Below are positions 4,572 through 37,129 of a DNA stretch of 42,137 nucleotides, piece after piece (within the stretch, counting starts at the first letter, position 1; each line of letters opens with the position of its first letter). The stretch comes from a virus (lineage: Duplodnaviria; Caudoviricetes). The position numbers and the translations under genes are program-made. The notes beneath the pieces are model-generated. The model made no database searches and was not told the origin of the DNA. It saw only the letters and a program-made list of their open reading frames with translations. The stretch covers positions 1 through 42,137 of IMG/VR virus record IMGVR_UViG_3300027710_000050; one strand, 5' to 3'.

Positions 4572-4840
4572 TAAAAACGAGGTGCTGCGTGAAATTATGT
4601 ATTGCACTAAACAAGAATGGGCGAAGAATTGGCGAAACACATCATAATGCAAAATTAACAGATGATGATGTTAATCATATTAGGTTGTTAAATATCGAGC
4701 ATGGCATATCTTTTAGGGAGCTTGCTCGGAAATTTGAGGTATCTCATACTACAATAGAAAACATTTGCGGATATAAAAAACGGTGTCAGGTCGCCGAAAA
4801 GTTTAAAACAATTGAGGTGGGTGATGGCAAGAACGGATAA
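4556..4840 (+). CDS. HTH DNA-binding protein (start probably GTG 4589)
   Basis: GETHHNAKLTDDDV..IR...SFRELARKFEVSHTTI. Confidence 0.7.
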   Translation: MSDQIIKTRCCVKLCIALNKNGRRIGETHHNAKLTDDDVNHIRLLNIEHGISFRELARKFEVSHTTIENICGYKKRCQVAEKFKTIEVGDGKNG

Positions 4841-5333: not shown

Positions 5334-6780
5334 ACTTGATGAGCAGATAATTGCTTTAGCTGCCGAGTGTACGCATGACCCTGTGACATGGGCATTGATG
5401 GCGTATGATTGGGGTGTTGGTGAGCTAAAAAACTATCAACAGCCCAAGGAGTGGCAATTAGATACATTAACAGATATTAAAAACCATCTTCAAAATCCTG
5501 AAACACGATACATGCCTTTATTGCTAGCAACGGCATCGGGGCATGGTATTGGTAAATCTGCTGATATAGGCATGATTATCAATTGGGCAATGTCAACTTG
5601 TGAAGATTGTAAGGTTGTTGTTACCGCTAATACTGACACCCAGTTAAGAACAAAAACAAGCCCAGAGATTGGGAAATGGACAAGGCTGTCAATCACAAGC
5701 GATTGGTTCGATGCTCAAACTATGTCTATTGTCGCAAAGGATAGAGAGCACGCTAAAAATTGGCGGTGTGATATGGTGCCATGGTCTGAACACAACACCG
5801 AAGCGTTTGCGGGCTTACACAACGAAGGCAAGCGTATTGTTTTGATATTTGATGAGGCCTCCGCAATCGCTGATAAGGTTTGGGAAGTGGCCGAGGGTGC
5901 ACTAACTGACGAAAACACAGAGATTATTTGGATAGCATTTGGAAACCCAACTCGAAACAGTGGGCGGTTTAGAGAGTGTTTTAGAAAATATAAACATCGT
6001 TGGATATGTCGCCAAATTGATAGTCGTACAGTTGAGGGTACAAACAAGAAACAGATTCAAAAATGGGTAGAGGATTACGGCGTAGATTCAGACTTTGTTA
6101 AGGTTCGTGTCAGGGGGATATTTCCGAGTATGTCAGCAAAACAATTTATCGGCGAGGCCGATGTCGATGCGGCATTTGGTCGAATCATTAAAGAGCATCA
6201 ATATAATTTCGCACCAAAAATATTATCAATTGACCCTGCGTGGGAAGGTGATGATGACTTTGTTATTGGGTTAAGACAGGGTTTGGTATTTAAAATACTT
6301 AAGGTTATCCCTAAAAACGATAATGATGTGCAGATGGGTAACATTATCGCGCAATTAGAAGATGAGCATCAGGCCGATGCTGTTTTCATTGATGGCGGTT
6401 ATGGTACGGGTATTAAATCAGTGGGCGATACATTAGGCAGGGATTGGATGTTAGTGTGGTTTAGTGGGGAATCTTCGGACGCTGGTTGTTTAAATAAACG
6501 TGCTGAGATGTGGAAAAATATGCGAGACTGGTTAAAGGAAGGCGGGTGCATTCCAGAAGACCAAGTTTTAAGAGATGAAATTATCAGCCCAGAGACGGTT
6601 GCAAGGCTTGACGGAAAAATCCAGCTTGAGTCAAAAAAAGACATGAAAATTAGGTTGTTACCATCCCCAAACCGCGCTGATTGCCTAGCTATTTCGTTTG
6701 CGTATCCTGTGCAGAAAAAACAGCGAGGCCATGATTTTGGTGGTGGAAGAACATCAAGAAGTGATTATAACCCTTATTGA
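5320..6780 (+). CDS. terL: terminase large subunit
   Basis: ASGHGIGKS Walker A, LIFDEAS Walker B, GNPTRNSG, SPNRAD nuclease motif. Confidence 0.95.
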   Translation: MQKSELDEQIIALAAECTHDPVTWALMAYDWGVGELKNYQQPKEWQLDTLTDIKNHLQNPETRYMPLLLATASGHGIGKSADIGMIINWAMSTCEDCKVVVTANTDTQLRTKTSPEIGKWTRLSITSDWFDAQTMSIVAKDREHAKNWRCDMVPWSEHNTEAFAGLHNEGKRIVLIFDEASAIADKVWEVAEGALTDENTEIIWIAFGNPTRNSGRFRECFRKYKHRWICRQIDSRTVEGTNKKQIQKWVEDYGVDSDFVKVRVRGIFPSMSAKQFIGEADVDAAFGRIIKEHQYNFAPKILSIDPAWEGDDDFVIGLRQGLVFKILKVIPKNDNDVQMGNIIAQLEDEHQADAVFIDGGYGTGIKSVGDTLGRDWMLVWFSGESSDAGCLNKRAEMWKNMRDWLKEGGCIPEDQVLRDEIISPETVARLDGKIQLESKKDMKIRLLPSPNRADCLAISFAYPVQKKQRGHDFGGGRTSRSDYNPY

Positions 6781-6974
6781 ATTTTTAATGCTGCCATCCA
6801 TTGCTCTAACGGCATATCACGATGGTTTTTTACTGATACATCGGCAACCCATTTGCCGACAGTCCTGATATTAACGCCGATTTTTTCGGCAAATTGTTTT
6901 TGAGTCCATCCTTTAGACTCAAGCAAAAAACGTAAGTTGGCTGGCGTGTAGCCAACTTCGGGAAAATTTGACAT
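6774..6974 (-). CDS. aca3: anti-CRISPR-associated HTH regulator, Aca3-like
   Basis: PEVGYTPANL...TQ...W...KN..DMPL..W matches the Aca3 signature as I recall it (PEIGYTPANL...DMPLVKW). Confidence 0.8.
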   Translation of the reverse strand: MSNFPEVGYTPANLRFLLESKGWTQKQFAEKIGVNIRTVGKWVADVSVKNHRDMPLEQWMAALKIQ

Positions 6975-6996
6975 GAGTATAAACCTTGGTTAAACT
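6968..6996 (+). promoter_or_regulatory. sigma70 promoter for the mini-array
   Basis: TTGACA-17 bp-TAAACT, ~30 bp upstream of repeat 1; overlaps the aca3 start codon. Confidence 0.7.
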
Positions 6997-7028
6997 GTTT
7001 TTACTTTGTGATAACTCACTAAGTAATG

Positions 7029-7160
7029 TTTATCTGTCACATAGACAGCTTAGAAAAGCTTTCATGCTGAATTTACTTATTAGTTCACTACCGCACAGGT
7101 AGCTTAGAAATATGAGTAATTAAACCTGATGCTTTTACTGTCACATAGACAGCTTAAAAA
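7029..7160 (+). CRISPR. type I-F mini-array: 3 degenerate 28-nt repeats, spacers 26 and 22 nt, no cas genes
   Basis: 7029-7056 TTTATCTGTCACATAGACAGCTTAGAAA; 7083-7110 GTTCACTACCGCACAGGTAGCTTAGAAA; 7133-7160 TTTTACTGTCACATAGACAGCTTAAAAA; all keep the 5-bp stem/5-nt loop and 8-nt handle. Confidence 0.9.
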
Positions 7161-7188
7161 GCCCCGACTGCATATCGGGGCTTTTTTT
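7156..7188. terminator. bidirectional intrinsic terminator
   Basis: AAAAAGCCCCGA-CTGCATA-TCGGGGCTTTTTTT. Confidence 0.85.
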
Positions 7189-7423
7189 ATCTTGAAGTCC
7201 ATACCCCGCTTCTAATTTCAACAGGAATAAATTCTAAGACATCTTGAGGGGCAATAATAACATATCTTATATTTGCATAAGACATAGCTAAAGTTATAGC
7301 TTTTGCCGCAGCAGCAGACGGGCCAACACCTGCATCGTGTCCAATGCTTTGAACCTTTCCGTTTTGAGCTAATGCATAACTAAAACGGTTTCTGCCCATG
7401 TCTGTAATAGTTATAACTAACAT
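7187..7423 (-). CDS. candidate anti-CRISPR/anti-defence protein (78 aa)
   Basis: Small ORF in the operon upstream of the aca3-like gene; association only. Confidence 0.55.
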   Translation of the reverse strand: MLVITITDMGRNRFSYALAQNGKVQSIGHDAGVGPSAAAAKAITLAMSYANIRYVIIAPQDVLEFIPVEIRSGVWTSR

Positions 7424-7428
7424 GATAA

Positions 7429-7899
7429 TTACCCCACAAAATCAAAACTTATTTCTTCATCTTCAATAGAAGAAAATTGTAACTCTAATTTTTTAGCAAA
7501 ATCTTCGCCTACTGAGTTGATAATATCGTCACTCAGTTTTGAAGCGTTGATTAAGTAATAATTAAATAAAATTTCAGCAATCTTGCTGTTTTTGTTGACT
7601 GTAAAATTAAAAGAATTTAAAGGGAGAGCAACATTGCCGTTTTTAAATGTAATTCGGCAGTAAATATCCGAAGAAATACCGTGAACACGGTCTAGTCCTG
7701 ATGCTTGAAATTCGATGTTTAGGTATTTTCCGAAAATCACTGCGCGACAAGGGTTTGTGCTTGAGTCGTCAACTAAAACAGCGTTAATGCCTTTTTTGTT
7801 AAAAAAGGCTACAACATCTTGCATATTGCAAGAGTAAACAACAGCATCAACAGGAGCGTTATCATACTGACTCAATACAACTGGCTTGATAGTTTTCAT
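7429..7899 (-). CDS. candidate anti-CRISPR protein (ATG 7899), acidic C-terminus
   Basis: First gene after the operator-containing promoter; tail SSIEDEEISFDFVG. Confidence 0.55.
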   Translation of the reverse strand: MKTIKPVVLSQYDNAPVDAVVYSCNMQDVVAFFNKKGINAVLVDDSSTNPCRAVIFGKYLNIEFQASGLDRVHGISSDIYCRITFKNGNVALPLNSFNFTVNKNSKIAEILFNYYLINASKLSDDIINSVGEDFAKKLELQFSSIEDEEISFDFVG

Positions 7900-7969
7900 A
7901 ATCGTTCTCACTAAGTAATGTTTTGATTTATCAAGATTTGATTCTGCATCATCTCGTCTTGATGAGCTT

Positions 7970-8005
7970 AGTATATGCCCATATTGGGCTTATTTAAAGT
8001 GTCAA
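7970..8005 (-). promoter_or_regulatory. acr promoter with inverted-repeat operator
   Basis: Minus strand TTTAAA-17-TATACT with GCCCA-ATA-TGGGC between the boxes; extra TTGACA upstream. Confidence 0.7.
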
Positions 8006-8022
8006 TTTAGGCCAATTTTCAT

Positions 8023-8055
8023 TGGCAACCTAAAAAAACTTTAAAACTGTACGAT
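8023..8055 (+). promoter_or_regulatory. putative late promoter motif (also 11226-11258 and 27135-27167)
   Basis: TGGCAACYTAAA-N15-TAnnnT with identical spacing in three intergenic regions. Confidence 0.65.
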
Positions 8056-16994: not shown

Positions 16995-17504
16995 ATGAAT
17001 CCAATTTTAATGCTGCAAATGTTTAACGCGGGAAATAATGCGATAGGGAGCTTTTTTGGCGCAAAACAACAGCGTCAAGACCTGAATTTTCAAGCTAACA
17101 TGGCCGAAATAAACGCGGGCTTGTACGACTTAAAAGCCAAAGATGCTATGCAGCAAGGTATTGCAGCCGAGCAACAATACCGCATGAAGACGGCGCAAGA
17201 AAAAGGCAGTTCTCGTGTAAAGGCAGCCTCTCGCGGCATTGATTTATCAAGTGATGTGGTTGTTAATGAGCTAACAACTCAAGATTACATTACCGAGATT
17301 GATACAAACACCATTCAGGCGAATACAATCAAGTCGGCATTTGGTTATAAAACAGAAGCACAAAACCAACGCTCTCAAGCCAACATGATGAGAACATCTG
17401 CTAATTCTATCAATCCAGCAATGGCAACATTTAACTCACTGCTTGGTGGTGCTACCGATATTGCGTCCACCTGGCATGGTCAAAAGAAAGCAGGAGTTAA
17501 ATAA
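16995..17504 (+). CDS. internal virion (ejection) protein
   Basis: Position; helical A/Q-rich with AASRGID motif. Confidence 0.7.
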   Translation: MNPILMLQMFNAGNNAIGSFFGAKQQRQDLNFQANMAEINAGLYDLKAKDAMQQGIAAEQQYRMKTAQEKGSSRVKAASRGIDLSSDVVVNELTTQDYITEIDTNTIQANTIKSAFGYKTEAQNQRSQANMMRTSANSINPAMATFNSLLGGATDIASTWHGQKKAGVK

Positions 17505-19208: not shown

Positions 19209-22200
19209 ATGCCTAATTATGATGATATTGTCGGTCAGTTACCACAAGACACCACGCCTAATCAAAACCTTTATTTGGCCAGTGATGTTAATCCTGATGA
19301 GGAGGCATCATTACGCAACTTGTCTAAACAGACAGGTATGCCAGTGGAGGCGTTGCGTTTAAAGCCTGTGGCTCAAGAAGTTAAACGCTCATTAACTGCC
19401 AATAAATACGACAATATCATCAAAACATCGCCTAAGTTGGCGCAATTTTTATCTAATCCTAATAATGCGAATATCTCTCATGATGATGTCGATAATTTAG
19501 GCTTGTTAGAGCGCACTTTTCGTCAATTAACAGGCGGCAACATCGAAAATGTTGGCATGACTTCTGGCGGTTTTGGCGAGTTATTCAACATTGGCCAGCG
19601 TAAGTTAATCAACACGCTCTCTGATTTGTTATTGCCTCCAACATCTGACGGTCAAAAAATAAATCCTGAGTCTTTATATGGGCCAATGATTGGCGAGGGA
19701 TTAAAAGACACGGGCAAAATCGTTAAAGATTATGCGCGTAATACCGTTAAAGTACCTCAAAATCAGCAAACCTTCTATGACCAAGTTGTCGGCGGCATTG
19801 GTCAGGTGACTTCACAGGTTATTACTACACCTTTAACGCTTGGTACTGGATTATATGCCCAAGGTGCTGATGCTATGGCTGAGAAAATAGCCACAGATAA
19901 CGCACCACAGGACACCAAAGACAATGCTGTTTTGCTTGGCTCATTAGTGACAGGTTTAACCGAAAAGTGGGCATTGGATAAATTAACGGGGCCACTAGAC
20001 ACAAAAGTAAAATCTCAACTTGGCCAAGTGTTAGCAAGAATTGGTATTGCAGGCGGGGCTGAGGGCGTTCAGGAGTTTTCGGAAAACCTTTTACAAGACA
20101 CCATTCGTCAACAAATGGTTAATCCAAATGCCACTATTGATGTGATGCAATCGGTAGAGGAGGGGCAAGTAGGGGCGACAGTTGGCGCGGTTGTACGTTC
20201 TTTTGTTGAGGCAGGGCTACACATTAAAAAGCGCAACGATGCGGCATTAAAGGCACAGGCAGAACAAGAACAACTAAACAATATCAACCAACTATCACAA
20301 GCAAGCAGAGTGTTACAGCGTGATCAAGCCACGTTTGAGGATTACTTAAAATCTGTGACTGACGAACAAGGCGCGGTGACTGATTTATATATTGATGCTC
20401 AAACATTGGCACAATCAGGCCATGCTCAAAAAATTACAGAAGTCATGCCGTCCGTAGCTGAGCAATTGCCTAATGCTTTGGCGACTAATGGCGTTATCCG
20501 CTTAGATGTAGCTGAGTATGCCTCGCGTGTAGGCAATCAGGAGTTTGCTCAGTCATTGGTACAGGATTTAAAAACCGACCCTGATGGATTTAGTGCAAAC
20601 GAGGCCGCCGATTTTGTTAAGACCAAAGCAGCCGAGGAACTACAAAAAGAATTTGAAATTGCCAACAAAAACGCGCAACAGTCGGGCGAATTTGAGCAAA
20701 GCAAAGAGAAAGTCAGACAGGCTATCTTTGACGGACTAAGCTCAACAAAACGCTTTAGAGGTGACATTAACGAGGCTTATTCTAATTTGATGGCTTCTTA
20801 TTTTGCCACTCGTGCGCGTAATCTTGGCCAAACGCCTGAGCAAGTGTTTAATGATTACACGGTTAAGATTGCAAGCAAGGTGAGTGGTGGGGATGTTTTG
20901 GGGCAGTCATCGCCTGAGTTTTCAACAAAGGAACAAGCAGAGGCAAAGGCTAGAATACTTCAAAAACAGCTCGATAGACAAAAGGCAAAACTAACACCTG
21001 ACAACATAAAATTTAAAGAGTTGGAAATTAAGCGTATTTCTGATGCTTCTAAATCTTTGCCAAGTGAAAGCAATTTGTCAGTAAATACCGATATTGCTTA
21101 TGATGAAACCAAATTCACGCACAAAGCACCAAGCCCAAAAAACGGGCAATCTATTTTAGATTTTAATCAACGGATAGAGTCTGATGGTTTTTCTTTTGAT
21201 AATTTGGCTCAGGCGTTTATTGATGATGTAAAGAATAATCCAAACAAAAAAGCCACTATTTATCGTGCTGTTGCTGTTGATGGCAATGCTGATATTAAAA
21301 ACGGCGATTGGGTAGCATCAACAAAACAGTATGCTGAAAATCACGGCATGAGTGTTTTTGGTGAGGGAAAGTATAAGATTATTGAAAAAGAGGTATTGCC
21401 AAAAAACATCTTTACGGATGGTAATAGTATTCATGAGTTTGGTTATGTTGAGGATGGGGATGTTTTAAATAAGTCAAAAACTACTGAGCAAAACCAATTC
21501 ACCGAGATGCTATCCCAAGCAGACAAGATGATTGCCGAGCAAGGCCAATTACTTGCACCTAATGGGAAACCATCTAAACTAAACCGTGTGCAATGGGCGC
21601 AAGTACGAACTGATAACTTTAAGACATGGTTTGGAGATTGGGAAAATGACCCTGCCAATGCGTCAAAAGTGGTTGATGATAATGGTGAGCCGTTGGTGGT
21701 TTATCATGGGACTAATGCTAGTTTTGATGAGTTTAAAAAGAATAATGTTATTCATGGATTAGAGTATGGCGATGGTTTTTATTTTACAACAGATAAAAAA
21801 CAGGCAGAAAATTATGGTGAAAAAATCAAAGATATTTTTCTAAATATTAGAAATCCGTTTAATCCATTTGGAGGTAATAAAAAAAGAGCTTATTTTGATA
21901 ATACAGAAGACGCTAAATTGCTATTCAGGCAAAAAATGGCAGAATTTGAAAAAGAAGGCAAAGGCTATGATAGATTTAAGCCGATAATAAACAAGGAAGA
22001 CAACGGATTTTCAATAGATTATTCAACAGCCTATGATTTAGAGCCTAGCTTATTTAATGATGGGTACAATCGCGGAAATATATTCGTTGCTTTTGACCCC
22101 ACACAAATAAAATCCGCCACGGGCAACAATGGCGAGTTTAATCCTGCCGACCCCAATATATTAAAACAGTCCTCCGATGTAGACCTCGGCTCATTCGACC

Positions 22201-25200
22201 CTTTACGCAACATTATCACCTTATTAGCCGATGCCAACTTATCAACGTTCCTGCATGAGTCAATGCACTTCTTTTTAGAAACAGATATTACGATTGCGGC
22301 TCAAATCATTAGCCAAAATGATATTTTTGATGTTTCTACCATGAGCAAGGGCGAGCAACAACACCTTAGAGATGTGTCGTTATTGCTTAAGCAAGTAGGC
22401 TTAGAGGGTGACATTCAACAACAAATTACCGCTTGGCAAACAATGGATTTTGAGGAAAAGCGTACTTATCACGAAAAAGTAGCCGAGATGGGGGAAAAAT
22501 ACTTCTTTGAGGGGCGCGCTCCAAGCATCGAGCTAATTCCTGTGTTTAATCGCTTCCGTAATTTTATGGTGAGCGTTTATAAGAGTATTAAGAAGTTTTT
22601 AACTGCTAATCCTGACGCTGGCAAAATCAACAATGAAGTGCGTATGGTCTTTGACCGTATGATTGCTACAGAAGAAGAAATTGCCTTAGCTGAAAAAGCA
22701 CGAAGCATGATGCCATTGGTAGGCACAGCCGAAGATCTTGGCATGACCGAGCAAGAGTTTGCAGACTACCAAGAGCAAGCCAAGCAAGCCACACAAGACG
22801 CAATCACCGAGCTACAGACAAAAGGCTTGCGTGACATGAAGTGGCTTAGAAACTTGCAAAGCAAGGAGCTAAAACGCTTGCAGAAGATGGCACAGGCTCA
22901 ACGTGCTGAGGTTAGACGCACAGTTCGCGCTGAGGTGTTATCTGAGTCTGTTTATCGTGCTTACAGCATGCTTACGGCACGTATGACCGATGAGGACAAG
23001 TTGCCTGTACAGCCTAAGGTTAAACCATCTAATAATGTTGTTGACCCAACAACAGATAGCTTGTTTGTGGCTATTGCCAAATTGGGTGGCATTAACTTTG
23101 ATGATGCGGTGCGCGAATGGGGTGTTGACCCTAAAGAAAACATAAAAACGCCTATTTTTGGCAAGCCAGTATTGCGTAAAAAAGGCGGCAGAAGTATTGA
23201 TGATATAGCACGGGCATTGGCCGAGGATAGTTATATTGAGGTCGATGACAGTGGACAATATGACACTAGCGAGCTTGAGCAGCGATTCAATGATGAGTTG
23301 TTTGGCACCATCCAATACAGTGTTTTACGCGATTATAGTCTTAAGGAGCAAAAGGCGGGTGATGGCATTGACTTAACAGGCGTTAATGCTCTGCGTTTTG
23401 ATTACGATAGCTTATTGAATATGGATATTGGCAAAGAGGTGTTTGATATTCTTGTGGCGCGTAAGATGACTTCAAAAACTGGCGGCATTCATCCTGATTT
23501 TGTGGCCGAGTATTTACAGGCTGATGGCTGGGAATCGGGTTCTGAGTTGGTTAACGCTTTGGCAACAAGTAACACGCCACAAGAAGAAATAGAAAACCGC
23601 ACCGACCAACGCATGACCGAGCAATATGCTGAATTATCCTCTGAGGCTGCTATTCAACGGGCGGCAGATATTGCTGTGCATAATGAGGCAAGGTCAAGGC
23701 TGATTGAGACTGAATTTAAGGCATTGGCCAAGGCATTAAATGAGCGCGTACCTGATGGCCAAGACAAAAACAGCAGGGCTAGAACACTGGCGGCTTTGCC
23801 TATGGCGGCTAAAGAATTGGCTAACCGTGTTATCTCGCGTGTGCGTGTGCGTGATGTTCGACCCTCTCAGTATGCGGCGGCCGAGACAAGAGCAATTAGA
23901 GCCTTTGAACGTGCGCGAACTATTGAGGAACGTATCACTGAAAAGAAAAACCAGTTGATTAACTTCCATTTGACCAGAGAGGCTTATGCAGCCCAAGAAG
24001 AAGTTAAGGTCGCTTTGCGCTATGTGAAAAAGTTTGATAGTAAAAATATATCTAAGCGCATTGAGCCTGATTACATGGAGCAAATCGAAGCGTTTTTGGA
24101 AAAGTACGATTTTAGACAGGTATCGAATAAGGCTGTTGATAAGCGTAAATCTTTAAAAAAATGGATTGCAGCACAAGAGGAATTGGGCTTATCACCCGAT
24201 ATTGACCAACGCTTAATAGATGATGCCAATAAAACACATTACAAAGACTTAACCGTGGATGAGTTTAGGGGCGTGGTTGAGGCAATCAAGCAAATTGAAC
24301 ACATGGGGCGGTTAAAGACTAAGCTGCTCAATGCCCAAAAACAGCGCAATTTTGAAAAGGTCAGGACTTTGCTGCTTGAGGCTTTGGCTAGTAACTCCAA
24401 AAACGCAGAAATCTTAAACCGAGAGCCAAGCAACAGCGAAGAACGTAAAAGATATGGAGCTAAAGGCTTTTTGTTGGCGCATTTAAAAGGTTCAACATTG
24501 GCCAGAGAATTTGACGGCGGCAAGGATGGTGGTATTTGGTGGGATGTGCTGATTAGACCTGCCAATGATGCGGCAGACATGGAGACGCTATTAAACCATG
24601 AGGCAAGCATGAAACTTACTGAGATATTAAAGCCAATTTTAGCTAACTCGAAATGGTTTAAAGGATTGGAGGGTAAGGGAAAGACTTACACTATGGGCGA
24701 TAAACAGCGTACTTTTAACCATGCTCAACGTATTGTTATCGCGCTGAACATGGGTAACGCTGGCAATACTCAAAGGTTGCTTGATGGCGAGGGGTGGACA
24801 AGGGCGGATGTAGAGCAGATTTTGCAGGATTTTAACGCGGATGAGTTGCAAGCTATTCAGCAGGTTTGGGATCTGTTTGAGTCATATCGCCCAAAGGTCG
24901 CTGAATTGGAAAAGCGTATTTATGGCAAAGAGCCTGAATGGATTGAAGCGGTACCATTAACCGTAAAATCTAAAGACGGCCAAGAATTAACATTGAGAGG
25001 CGGTTATTTTCCGATTAAATACGACAAAGAGGCAAGCAGTCGCACCGAAGAACTGGCAAACGCTGAGACAGCAAAACAGGCCATGCAAGGCGCATTTAGC
25101 GCGGCCAATGTTAGACGCTCGTTTGCAAAATCTCGCGTAGCAGAGGTTAAAGGCCGTCCATTGTCCTATGATATGGCGGGGATGTTTTCTAGTTTGCGCG

Positions 25201-26390
25201 AGTTGCATCACTATTTGTCATGGGCTGAATGGGTAATTGATGCCAAGCGCGTTATTGGCGATGACAAGGTAAAAGATGCAATTAGAAGCAATTATGGCGG
25301 CAAAGTATTGAGAGAGCTTAAGGGATGGGTTGATGCTGTTGCCAAAGGCGACCAGTCCGAAAATGATGCGGTTGCTCGGTTTTTTAATAAAGTCAGGGCG
25401 AATGTTAGTATTGCAGGGCTTGGCTTTAATGTGATGACAGGTGCATTGCAGTTGACTGGCTTTTTAAATGGTGCTGTTCGCAATGGTTATAAGTATCAGG
25501 CTATAGGCTTGTCAAAATTAGCATCTAATCCATTAGCACTTGCTAAAGAGATTCGTGCAAAATCCAAATTTATGGATGCTCGTACAAATACCATGTTCCA
25601 AGAATTAAACGAGAATATGAATAAGATTCGCGGGGACATGGGCATACAAGACACAATGATTAAGCATGGGTTTACCTTAATCCGTATCATGCAGCAACAG
25701 GTTGATGTGGTGACATGGCAGGGAGCTTACGAGAAAGCCGTTGCGGAGGGACATGGCGATGACAAAGCTATTGCTATTGCTGACCAAGTGGTGAGGGATA
25801 CGCAAGGCTCTGGCTTATGGCATGACTTGTCTTTTGTGCAAAGAGAGCGTAATTTGAAGTTGTTTACTGTGTTTTATAACTATATGGGAACAGTTTTAAA
25901 CACGATTTACACTCAAGCCAAGACCGCGCCAAACAAGAAAAAGCTAATTGCTGATATGCTGCTTTTAACGGTTGCCGTTCCTGCTATGACTGCATTATTG
26001 CGTAATGGATTAACACCAAGCGATGATGATGAGGGCGAAGACTGGCTCTGGAAGGTGTTGCGCGAAATAACAGGCAGTGCATTAGGTTTGTTTGTTGCCT
26101 TTAGAGAGATTCAGGCTTTATCCAATCTATTTGTGGATGACCCTGTGGATTATTCAGGCACAACAGGCACAAAAGCCTTTGCTGATATTATGAAGTTTGC
26201 AGAACAAGCAAAACAAGGTGAGGCTGACGATGGATTTACTCGTGCATCTATTAATTTGGCTGGTGATTTGTTTGGCATTCCATCAGCACAAATCAATAAG
26301 ACTATTAAGGGTGCTGATGCTATCGAGCAAGGCAAGACAGATGGTGCGGTCGAGGATGCTCAGGCTTTGATGTTTGGGTATAAGCAGTAA
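19209..26390 (+). CDS. giant ejection/polyvalent protein with ADP-ribosyltransferase-like and HExxH domains
   Basis: FKTWFGDW..SKVVD.NGEPLVVYHGT..GFYFT..F.PTQIKSATGN (ART-PolyVal); STFLHESMH. Confidence 0.8.
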   Translation: MPNYDDIVGQLPQDTTPNQNLYLASDVNPDEEASLRNLSKQTGMPVEALRLKPVAQEVKRSLTANKYDNIIKTSPKLAQFLSNPNNANISHDDVDNLGLLERTFRQLTGGNIENVGMTSGGFGELFNIGQRKLINTLSDLLLPPTSDGQKINPESLYGPMIGEGLKDTGKIVKDYARNTVKVPQNQQTFYDQVVGGIGQVTSQVITTPLTLGTGLYAQGADAMAEKIATDNAPQDTKDNAVLLGSLVTGLTEKWALDKLTGPLDTKVKSQLGQVLARIGIAGGAEGVQEFSENLLQDTIRQQMVNPNATIDVMQSVEEGQVGATVGAVVRSFVEAGLHIKKRNDAALKAQAEQEQLNNINQLSQASRVLQRDQATFEDYLKSVTDEQGAVTDLYIDAQTLAQSGHAQKITEVMPSVAEQLPNALATNGVIRLDVAEYASRVGNQEFAQSLVQDLKTDPDGFSANEAADFVKTKAAEELQKEFEIANKNAQQSGEFEQSKEKVRQAIFDGLSSTKRFRGDINEAYSNLMASYFATRARNLGQTPEQVFNDYTVKIASKVSGGDVLGQSSPEFSTKEQAEAKARILQKQLDRQKAKLTPDNIKFKELEIKRISDASKSLPSESNLSVNTDIAYDETKFTHKAPSPKNGQSILDFNQRIESDGFSFDNLAQAFIDDVKNNPNKKATIYRAVAVDGNADIKNGDWVASTKQYAENHGMSVFGEGKYKIIEKEVLPKNIFTDGNSIHEFGYVEDGDVLNKSKTTEQNQFTEMLSQADKMIAEQGQLLAPNGKPSKLNRVQWAQVRTDNFKTWFGDWENDPANASKVVDDNGEPLVVYHGTNASFDEFKKNNVIHGLEYGDGFYFTTDKKQAENYGEKIKDIFLNIRNPFNPFGGNKKRAYFDNTEDAKLLFRQKMAEFEKEGKGYDRFKPIINKEDNGFSIDYSTAYDLEPSLFNDGYNRGNIFVAFDPTQIKSATGNNGEFNPADPNILKQSSDVDLGSFDPLRNIITLLADANLSTFLHESMHFFLETDITIAAQIISQNDIFDVSTMSKGEQQHLRDVSLLLKQVGLEGDIQQQITAWQTMDFEEKRTYHEKVAEMGEKYFFEGRAPSIELIPVFNRFRNFMVSVYKSIKKFLTANPDAGKINNEVRMVFDRMIATEEEIALAEKARSMMPLVGTAEDLGMTEQEFADYQEQAKQATQDAITELQTKGLRDMKWLRNLQSKELKRLQKMAQAQRAEVRRTVRAEVLSESVYRAYSMLTARMTDEDKLPVQPKVKPSNNVVDPTTDSLFVAIAKLGGINFDDAVREWGVDPKENIKTPIFGKPVLRKKGGRSIDDIARALAEDSYIEVDDSGQYDTSELEQRFNDELFGTIQYSVLRDYSLKEQKAGDGIDLTGVNALRFDYDSLLNMDIGKEVFDILVARKMTSKTGGIHPDFVAEYLQADGWESGSELVNALATSNTPQEEIENRTDQRMTEQYAELSSEAAIQRAADIAVHNEARSRLIETEFKALAKALNERVPDGQDKNSRARTLAALPMAAKELANRVISRVRVRDVRPSQYAAAETRAIRAFERARTIEERITEKKNQLINFHLTREAYAAQEEVKVALRYVKKFDSKNISKRIEPDYMEQIEAFLEKYDFRQVSNKAVDKRKSLKKWIAAQEELGLSPDIDQRLIDDANKTHYKDLTVDEFRGVVEAIKQIEHMGRLKTKLLNAQKQRNFEKVRTLLLEALASNSKNAEILNREPSNSEERKRYGAKGFLLAHLKGSTLAREFDGGKDGGIWWDVLIRPANDAADMETLLNHEASMKLTEILKPILANSKWFKGLEGKGKTYTMGDKQRTFNHAQRIVIALNMGNAGNTQRLLDGEGWTRADVEQILQDFNADELQAIQQVWDLFESYRPKVAELEKRIYGKEPEWIEAVPLTVKSKDGQELTLRGGYFPIKYDKEASSRTEELANAETAKQAMQGAFSAANVRRSFAKSRVAEVKGRPLSYDMAGMFSSLRELHHYLSWAEWVIDAKRVIGDDKVKDAIRSNYGGKVLRELKGWVDAVAKGDQSENDAVARFFNKVRANVSIAGLGFNVMTGALQLTGFLNGAVRNGYKYQAIGLSKLASNPLALAKEIRAKSKFMDARTNTMFQELNENMNKIRGDMGIQDTMIKHGFTLIRIMQQQVDVVTWQGAYEKAVAEGHGDDKAIAIADQVVRDTQGSGLWHDLSFVQRERNLKLFTVFYNYMGTVLNTIYTQAKTAPNKKKLIADMLLLTVAVPAMTALLRNGLTPSDDDEGEDWLWKVLREITGSALGLFVAFREIQALSNLFVDDPVDYSGTTGTKAFADIMKFAEQAKQGEADDGFTRASINLAGDLFGIPSAQINKTIKGADAIEQGKTDGAVEDAQALMFGYKQ

Positions 26391-33472: not shown

Positions 33473-33680
33473 TTTTTGCGTGTCGTTTGCGTGTCATTCT
33501 GTAGGCACTTATAGGCACTTATAGACACACTAGAAAACAAAAAAGCCTAGATTTCTCTAGGCTTTTCAATGGTTTGATTGGTGGAGATGGCGGGAATTGA
33601 ACCCGCCAACAATATAAAAATAACCTTTTATTATCAATATATTGCAGCTATGCCTCTTTTTTGCGTGTCGTTTGCGTGTC
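33473..33680. other. attP region with arm-type sites
   Basis: TTTTTGCGTGTCGTTTGCGTGTC at 33473-33495 and 33658-33680; TAGGCACTTA tandem at 33502-33528; terminator 33540-33566. Confidence 0.8.
33579..33606 (-). other. attP core: 3' end of tmRNA (ssrA)
   Basis: GCGGGTTCAATTCCCGCCATCTCCACCA, T-arm plus acceptor only. Confidence 0.8.
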
Positions 33681-36757: not shown

Positions 36758-37129
36758 TTAGTTAGCCATTTGCTTAACAGCAACAGGCAGGTCGTGGACA
36801 TTACGAATTTTTGATGCAGAGATAGTGGGTTCATCTAACTCACGCAATGGCAACTTTTGTTGATGTGGGTCATCGCGCAATAAATTGCCGTCAGGCGTAC
36901 CAAAAAGAATGGTTTTTTCTTTGGCAAAAGAGGGGAGTTTTGATTTAACCTCGTCCGTTAAAAAATACTGACCGCTTGCCCCCTTAGGTTCGATAGTGAC
37001 CGTGATGGATACTGTGGCTTTTTTGCCCGTATCACGAGCGCGTTGAACCGCTTCGGTTAATGCTTCATCTAAATCTTGTTCGGCTTGACCGTGTCGCAAA
37101 TTAGATAAAGTCTCTGTAAACTTCGCCAT
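36758..37129 (-). CDS. conserved phage protein partnered with DUF2303
   Basis: TGKK..V...I, F.TPDGNL.R.DP.Q. Confidence 0.7.
   Translation of the reverse strand: MAKFTETLSNLRHGQAEQDLDEALTEAVQRARDTGKKATVSITVTIEPKGASGQYFLTDEVKSKLPSFAKEKTILFGTPDGNLLRDDPHQQKLPLRELDEPTISASKIRNVHDLPVAVKQMAN

Follow-up and report, generated by a model that had tools for sequence, protein, structure and literature searches.

The locus described here raises the question of what a miniature type I-F CRISPR array does within the anti-CRISPR (acr) cassette of a phage that lacks cas genes. The window, i.e., the whole stretch of DNA analysed, is a complete virus record of 42,137 bp (CheckV completeness 100%). The carrier is a complete, cas-less temperate podophage: its genes include a terminase, a portal and a tyrosine integrase, its major capsid protein is BPP-1/BcepC6B-like (58-62% identity), and no match to the Cas1, Cas6f or Cas7f families was found across the complete 42-kb contig, in agreement with an earlier note on this DNA, which had reported no cas genes. 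The acr/aca cassette, with its genes on the - strand, sits between the terminase and the portal region, and the mini-array (7029-7160) is placed in antisense orientation between an acrIF5 homologue and an aca3 homologue. The location inside an acr-aca locus claimed by the earlier note was thus confirmed by the flanking genes, with the amendment that the array occupies the strand opposite to them. The features of the cassette are the following:

6774..6974, - strand: aca3 homologue, HTH regulator of 66 aa (phmmer E 2e-11 to Aca3, PDB 9vt3; HTH_3)
6968..6996, + strand: predicted sigma-70 promoter of the array, TTGACA-17-TAAACT (10/12 match)
7015..7030, no strand given: 16-nt word, repeated at 7907-7922; a similar word precedes the acr and aca genes of a related cassette (L105)
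7029..7056, + strand: repeat 1, a degenerate I-F repeat (CRISPR-DR4 match)
7047..7106, + strand: 60-nt block equal to host creA, comprising handle, spacer 1 and most of repeat 2
7057..7082, + strand: spacer 1, 26 nt, exact copy of a host creA guide, with a CC-PAM target upstream of creT
7083..7110, + strand: repeat 2, the first 24 nt equal to the downstream repeat of host creA
7111..7132, + strand: spacer 2, 22 nt, resembling creA guides of TATGA type
7133..7160, + strand: repeat 3, with an altered handle, merged into the terminator
7156..7188, no strand given: intrinsic terminator (hairpin 7156-7186) with A and T runs on either side
7187..7423, - strand: acrIF5 homologue, 78 aa (phmmer E 4e-9 to AcrIF5, PDB 7eqg)
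7429..7899, - strand: 156-aa gene, first of the acr operon, an anti-CRISPR candidate by position only

Direct reading of the sequence bore out the proposed layout of an I-F mini-array with three repeats and spacers of 26 and 22 nt, followed by a terminator. The Rfam family CRISPR-DR4 matched repeat 2 above the gathering score (46 bits, E 3e-9), and repeats 3 and 1 with 26 bits (E 0.005) and 24.7 bits (E 0.012), respectively. The 5-bp stems of all three repeats form in the predicted transcript, and within the whole transcript the stems CTGTC/GACAG and CTACC/GGTAG fold with pair probabilities of 0.70-0.98. The differences between these stems had been taken for compensatory changes; both stems do form, but the differences reflect mixed origin rather than change within one lineage, as repeat 2 comes from a host creA and repeats 1 and 3 resemble a phage solitary repeat. 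Similarly, the handle, which had been described as kept in all three repeats, is intact in repeats 1 and 2, but repeat 3 ends in CTTAAAAA and not in CTTAGAAA, and runs into the terminator.

The source of spacer 1 was traced through a stretch of 24 nt, identical in repeat 1 and in the mini-array of an Acinetobacter cas locus (L014), which pointed to the Moraxellaceae. This family was reached via the LepA marker, and csy1 was found in 92 of its 401 genomes (97 matches); 80 csy1 loci were taken, these being the best 82 less two, with the 15 weakest left out. The L014 mini-array, of A. baumannii type, was rejected as the donor because its spacer is different, and served as a pointer to the family only. 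The record that carries it, although labelled as an Acinetobacter phage, is a chromosomal contig and includes a complete I-F locus; this CreR-like mini-array, which has a CC-PAM target, lies in the cas1-cas3 gap (5980-6085).

Positions 7047-7106 of the window were identical (60/60, E 3e-26) to G307:C2:144115-144174 on the - strand, located in the cas3-csy1 gap of genome G307 (locus L066). The spacer of the host mini-array equals spacer 1 (26/26), and its second repeat begins with the same 24 nt as repeat 2. At the level of sequence, the identity of spacer 1 as a host creA guide is certain. Of the 461-nt gap, the phage holds the 60-nt creA block only, without the creT gene and target that stand beside creA in a complete CreTA module, and it appears to have acquired the antitoxin alone, the toxin being absent. 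The earlier note had remarked that the 26-nt spacer is one Cas7 step short; the length is indeed so, but the host guide itself has this length, and the phage copied it without truncation.

A search for CC-PAM matches near host cas genes, as the earlier note had suggested, located the best site of spacer 1 among the 80 loci in the same gap of G307 (19/26; mismatches at positions 6, 10, 18, and 23-26). The G307 creA lies about 90 nt from this target on the other strand, and the creT mini-ORF about 120 nt downstream of it; a strong Shine-Dalgarno sequence follows the target, and then a 33-bp ORF. Wang et al. (2023; PMC10097628) define such an arrangement as creTA, and row 23 of their supplementary file 4, for Agitococcus lubricus, has an identical spacer, target, CC PAM and creT ORF, while row 24 gives a 19-nt version of this guide type in a MAG. 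In the Acinetobacter homologue, the creT promoter is repressed by Csy under the guidance of CreA, and the toxin CreT acts as a bactericidal RNA (PMC10097628). Positions 6 and 18 of the tested Acinetobacter CreA are unpaired and position 10 is dispensable (PMC10097628); in I-F guides generally, every sixth position is unpaired (PMC10120712). In shuffle controls over 59 cas-operon gaps, the match count of spacer 1 was reached by 3 of 5000 shuffles and its seed run by 386 of 5000; over all 80 loci, the match count was reached by 10 of 2000. The earlier note had suggested that a non-cleaving Cascade acts on host, cas or competitor promoters. This was upheld as to the host but not as to competitors: since spacer 1 copies creA and has a CC-PAM target upstream of creT, the target would be the promoter of a CRISPR-guarding toxin, not a competitor phage.

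Spacer 2 probably represents a second creA type directed to a creT promoter. Its best site, in locus L071 of genome G353, has a CC PAM with positions 1-11 and 13 matched and precedes a creT-like ORF; L055 (G561) has a similar but weaker site. The creA spacer of G353 itself shares positions 1-5 and 8-15 with spacer 2 and fits the target less well than spacer 2 does, so that spacer 2 alone falls short of a strict rule of at least nine PAM-proximal bases in common with a host guide. The best sites of both spacers are in cas3-csy1 gaps with creT-like ORFs, a situation found, under a strict pattern, in 6 of the 80 loci. The seed run of spacer 2 was reached by 4 of 5000 shuffles over the 59 gaps and by 58 of 2000 over all 80 loci, and its match count by 174 of 5000 over the gaps. 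A scan of the 401 family genomes with the handle plus the spacer 2 seed gave six hits, namely the two real creA genes of G353 and G561 and four chance matches. Both genomes belong to genera other than that of G307 (LepA 88 and 97% versus 85%). Within the genus of G307, no spacer 2 target was found at a cas locus (four csy1 loci, one of them partial; five of the nine genomes were searched whole); a lone hit at the end of a kinase gene was rejected as chance, as was a hit in G343 (away from any cas locus). Rows 3-24 (22 rows) of supplementary file 4 of PMC10097628 contain no spacer like spacer 2. The creTA-like modules with TATGA-type guides in the cas3-csy1 gaps of L071 and L055 are likewise absent from these rows, and the L071 mini-ORF carries ATA ATA where others carry arginine codons.

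Neither spacer has a CC-PAM match beyond nine positions in the phage itself, and long matches were absent from the phage and plasmid collections searched. A likeness of spacer 2 to the array's own promoter was rejected, as it requires a 2-nt gap and is without a CC PAM. A mini-array for immunity or inter-phage competition would have near-identical repeats, 32-nt spacers and full protospacer matches; here the repeats are divergent, the spacers are of 26 and 22 nt, and the targets are partial and confined to hosts.

The host is very likely an Agitococcus-like member of the Moraxellaceae, from the genus of the copied creA, given the phage matches of G307 spacers, an attP-like match to tmRNA, and the integrase and Aca3 homologues of G350. 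Three of 61 spacers in the I-F array of G307 match the phage with a CC PAM, and the features of the phage that bear on its host are:

4651..4682, - strand: protospacer of a G307 spacer, 31/32, CC PAM
17311-17342: protospacer of a G307 spacer, 28/32, CC PAM
ending at 36789: protospacer of a G307 spacer, 25/32, CC PAM
33579..33606, no strand given: attP-like core of 28 nt beside the integrase, equal to the tmRNA 3' end in four of nine genomes of the genus of G307

A fourth G307 spacer matches the phage at 27/32 without CC, and four further matches at 23/32 were set aside as likely chance. These matches lay in a part of the array outside the spacer set of the 80 loci, and the 1861 CRISPR spacers of that set gave no convincing phage match (one gapped match of 24 nt). 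Genome G350, of the same genus, encodes an integrase 76% identical to that of the phage and the sole Aca3 homologue among the 401 family genomes.

Taken together, the preferred reading, to which a probability of roughly 0.7 is given, is that the element is a phage copy of host creA guides, a Cracr-type array which would steer the host Csy complex onto creT promoters and keep the toxin silent. Such action, i.e., guidance to creT promoters and diversion of Csy from immune crRNAs, was demonstrated experimentally for Cracrs in other systems (10.1101/2024.10.29.618823). Judged by its sequence, the present element qualifies as a Cracr: it is carried by a 42-kb podophage with an integrase, outside any CRISPR-cas locus; it has the Cas6f hairpin, and the 8-nt handle is intact in the repeats that start the guides; at least nine PAM-proximal bases are common with a host CreA spacer, all 26 in the case of spacer 1; and partial PAM-flanked targets occur in cas/creT promoter regions (L066 for spacer 1, L071 for spacer 2).

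In this mechanism, the + strand would be transcribed from the promoter at 6968 to the terminator at 7156-7188, and cutting by host Cas6f at the stem bases would release RNAs of 54 nt (7049-7102) and 50 nt (7103-7152), expected from published structures to hold about five and four Cas7f subunits, respectively; complexes with five Cas7f form on a 54-nt guide whose spacer is of 26 nt, and complexes with four on a 49-nt guide (10.1101/2024.10.29.618823). CreTA modules are specific through their repeats, and heterologous creA repeats are often poorly used (PMC10097628). The stems of repeats 1 and 3 differ from those of the host CRISPR repeat and of the first host creA repeat, and cutting by host Cas6f is therefore not certain. 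Once loaded, the guides would bring Csy to creT promoters, adding to or replacing host CreA, with spacer 1 covering the toxin of G307 type and spacer 2 a second toxin variant. Csy would bind these targets without cutting, because the match ends at position 22 for spacer 1 or 13 for spacer 2. The phage guides would in addition compete with immune crRNAs for Csy.

The AcrIF5 homologue would act beside the array by blocking Cas2-3 recruitment with DNA binding intact. AcrIF5 acts on DNA-bound Csy only, leaving DNA binding intact and blocking Cas2-3 recruitment (PMC9637919), and a guide of host length could thus keep working beside it with no shortening needed. AcrIF5 also failed to trigger a CreA-repressed toxin (10.1101/2024.01.05.574328), which weakens the need for an extra antitoxin; the trigger of the toxin could then be either the 156-aa gene or competition for Csy by the array itself.

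Transcription of the array was considered from its flanking signals. The earlier note had assigned the array its own promoter. By count alone such matches are not above chance, with 10 found in the window against 10.5 expected from shuffles, but an unrelated virus (L137) has TTGACA-17-TATATT at the same place and spacing in the same cassette, and the array promoter gains support from this conservation. The -35 element overlaps the start codon of aca3, and that of L137 likewise overlaps the start codon of its HTH-like gene. The terminator is likely bidirectional. Contigs from RNA libraries span the array in a relative (run X2); as assembled contigs, they are silent on transcription, ends, strand and level.

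The array is gap-free in relatives from wastewater runs of two studies. Record 1 of run X2 covers 6883-7187 with 23 differences over 305 nt, and record 10 of run X3 covers 6946-7167 with 10 differences over 222 nt; among the matches listed, the differences lie upstream of repeat 1. Related cassettes hold a solitary repeat in the same slot before an identical terminator hairpin, namely L105, L137 and a 7048>7156 joint in runs X2 and X8. In L137 (1203-1844), the promoter, solitary repeat and terminator stand between genes for a 70-aa HTH-like and a 103-aa acidic protein, and L105 (G350:C341) carries aca3, one repeat with the stem CTGGC/GCCAG and then another acr candidate. The 211-aa gene of L105 (334-969) and the solitary I-F repeat beside its aca3 homologue (985-1029) are further Acr and Racr candidates.

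These single-repeat relatives favour a different role, in which the array is a multi-unit Racr-like sponge whose RNA soaks up Cas6f/Cas7f or Csy and whose spacers are passengers. Cas competition belongs to both Racr and Cracr action and is probably a side effect of the array. As the main role, however, the sponge is unlikely and was not favoured, although the earlier note had put it forward, because the spacers have PAM-flanked targets: both carry a proper 8-nt handle, are creA-like and find CC-PAM targets in creT promoters. Moreover, the release of CreA-repressed toxins has been reported for a pure sponge (10.1101/2024.01.05.574328), an outcome that would be harmful to the phage.

The position of the spacer 1 target, about 260 nt upstream of csy1 and on the same strand as creT, suggests instead that the main effect could be repression of the csy operon and a lowered supply of Cascade, as by CreR. 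L066, L071 and L055 all have the target, the creT ORF and csy1 in colinear order, and at one P. aeruginosa CreTA locus promoters are common with the adjacent cas genes (10.1101/2024.10.29.618823). Against this, in the homologous module tested from Acinetobacter it is the creT promoter that is repressed (PMC10097628), csy transcription may come from cas3, which lies upstream in the same orientation, and a putative hairpin follows creT on its 3' side, so that this effect is quite improbable as the principal one. That the array was captured recently as a passenger with no function, or serves as an antisense RNA tuning aca3, fits the 60-nt block, whose continued identity to the host copy suggests recent capture, and the promoter on the opposite strand over the aca3 start codon, but is very improbable, as the array stays gap-free in relatives with diverged flanks (the X2 and X3 records above), the chance collection of two different creA-like spacers is unlikely, and the predicted transcript begins beyond the aca3 coding region.

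Under the preferred reading of a copied antitoxin guide, the relatives also bear on the origin of the array. The 5' part of repeat 1 equals the solitary repeat of the related cassettes, and its last 10 nt, together with spacer 1 and most of repeat 2, equal host creA. The simplest reading is that a solitary-repeat cassette acquired pieces of host creA through recombination at the handle common to both; in the reverse direction, single repeats could have arisen by loss from an array. Scans with the stems of repeats 1 and 3 in IMG/VR and JGI metagenomes returned this phage's own contigs only, and of 16 hits to the terminator pattern, two carry a repeat (L137 and this phage's own contig). Scans of IMG/VR with handle plus seed gave two and one other loci, which lacked a repeat and were rejected as chance. 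A wider proposal, which is tentative and for which the odds are below even, is that a Racr is here turning into a Cracr: a mobile acr cassette of promoter, solitary repeat and terminator would have captured host guides serially at the repeat handle, and beside AcrIF5, a post-binding inhibitor, the unshortened guide would silence the toxin with Cas3 excluded. This would be a second solution to the compatibility of RNA and protein anti-CRISPRs, with the 156-aa neighbour as a new toxin-tripping anti-CRISPR.

The element was also compared with known systems. Liu et al. searched IMG/VR and described Cracr arrays, including multi-spacer I-F ones (10.1101/2024.10.29.618823), and the general phenomenon is thus already described in other phages. 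As in that preprint, a phage mini-array outside a cas locus mimics host creA and adjoins an acr gene, its spacers are short with partial CC-PAM matches to creT promoters, and several spacers face different variants of one subtype. The described I-F Cracrs are linked to acrIF24 and have spacers of 17-21 nt which escape AcrIF24 (10.1101/2024.10.29.618823), whereas here the array stands beside aca3 and the genes for the 78-aa AcrIF5 homologue and the 156-aa protein, and spacer 1 is an exact copy, of host length (26 nt), aimed at an Acinetobacter-type CreT. AcrIF5, aca3 and Agitococcus are absent from the main text of 10.1101/2024.10.29.618823, whose tables may list this contig.

With the host CreTA of Wang et al. 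(PMC10097628), the element shares spacer 1 and 24 nt of repeat 2, which equal Agitococcus lubricus creA, as well as the target and the creT mini-ORF; it differs in having the antitoxin only, in a three-repeat array with a predicted promoter and terminator of its own and neither toxin nor cas genes. Shmakov et al. (PMC10120712) reported I-F1 prophage mini-arrays resembling host ones in Moraxella osloensis, Acinetobacter baumannii and Pseudomonas. The M. osloensis array likewise has three repeats and two spacers, but its spacers are largely identical and those of the present phage differ; the hosts that carry those prophages are without a mini-array of their own, whereas the best-matching host here retains its creA. 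As in Racrs (Camara-Wilpert et al., 2023; PMC10651486), which the L105 and L137 cassettes resemble, an I-F repeat mimic with its own promoter lies inside an acr locus. In place of a single repeat with no targeting spacer, however, the phage element combines three repeats with two spacers that follow 5' handles and have PAM-flanked targets, and should therefore build full targeting complexes, unlike a Racr.

Literature listings, with bioRxiv supplements outside their scope, gave no description of the locus under AcrIF5 with aca3, mini-array, crlRNA or solitary repeat, under Cracr, or under Agitococcus with CRISPR and phage. In the texts searched, the AcrIF5/Aca3 context, the exact host-length copy aimed at an Acinetobacter-type CreT and the single-repeat relatives appear to be new. 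The locus offers a resolved case of a phage-copied antitoxin guide, for which the donor locus, the target, the toxin, the genus of the host and a likely precursor cassette were traced, and a cultured environmental bacterium is on record with the matching creTA module. If the preferred reading is true, Cracr action reaches beyond Pseudomonas and includes the CreT toxin of Acinetobacter type, short spacers are a rule tied to AcrIF24 and not to Cracrs in general, and a way is suggested in which Cracr arrays arise from solitary repeats.

Regarding the neighbouring genes, 18 other homologues of the AcrIF5 homologue were found in metagenomes. A scan of GTDB contigs with the AcrIF5 alignment gave nine loci with weak hits of 26-40 aa in SAR116 genomes, which were rejected as spurious. 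The available text of PMC12658196 makes no mention of Aca3. The 156-aa protein has an acidic tail, and eight close metagenome homologues plus three distant ones of similar length were found; no match was obtained in Pfam, PHROG, NCBIfam or PDB. A first structural model had a pLDDT of 32 and a second of 66; PDB and BFVD yielded no fold match to the second at E<=0.001. Atlas hits stayed below 0.8. The gene is nominated as an anti-CRISPR candidate that could be screened by a CreTA read-out.

The 16-nt word occurs before the array (7015-7030) and again, as a leader, ahead of the acr operon's first gene (7907-7922), and is likely a leader or ribosome-binding element of the - strand genes of the acr cassette. 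Similar words were also observed in loose ends of relatives, and the word is possibly a leader common to swappable acr cassettes. Two short inverted repeats at 7975-8035, in the predicted promoter of the acr operon, are possible Aca3 operators. Elsewhere in the phage, a 45-nt palindromic element around ATCGAATTCGAT is present in three copies in the early/replication region (432-476, 774-818, and 1542-1586), which are possible operators, and a virion-type protein of 2393 aa (19209-26390) has patches in common with several contigs of G350, G338 and G307.
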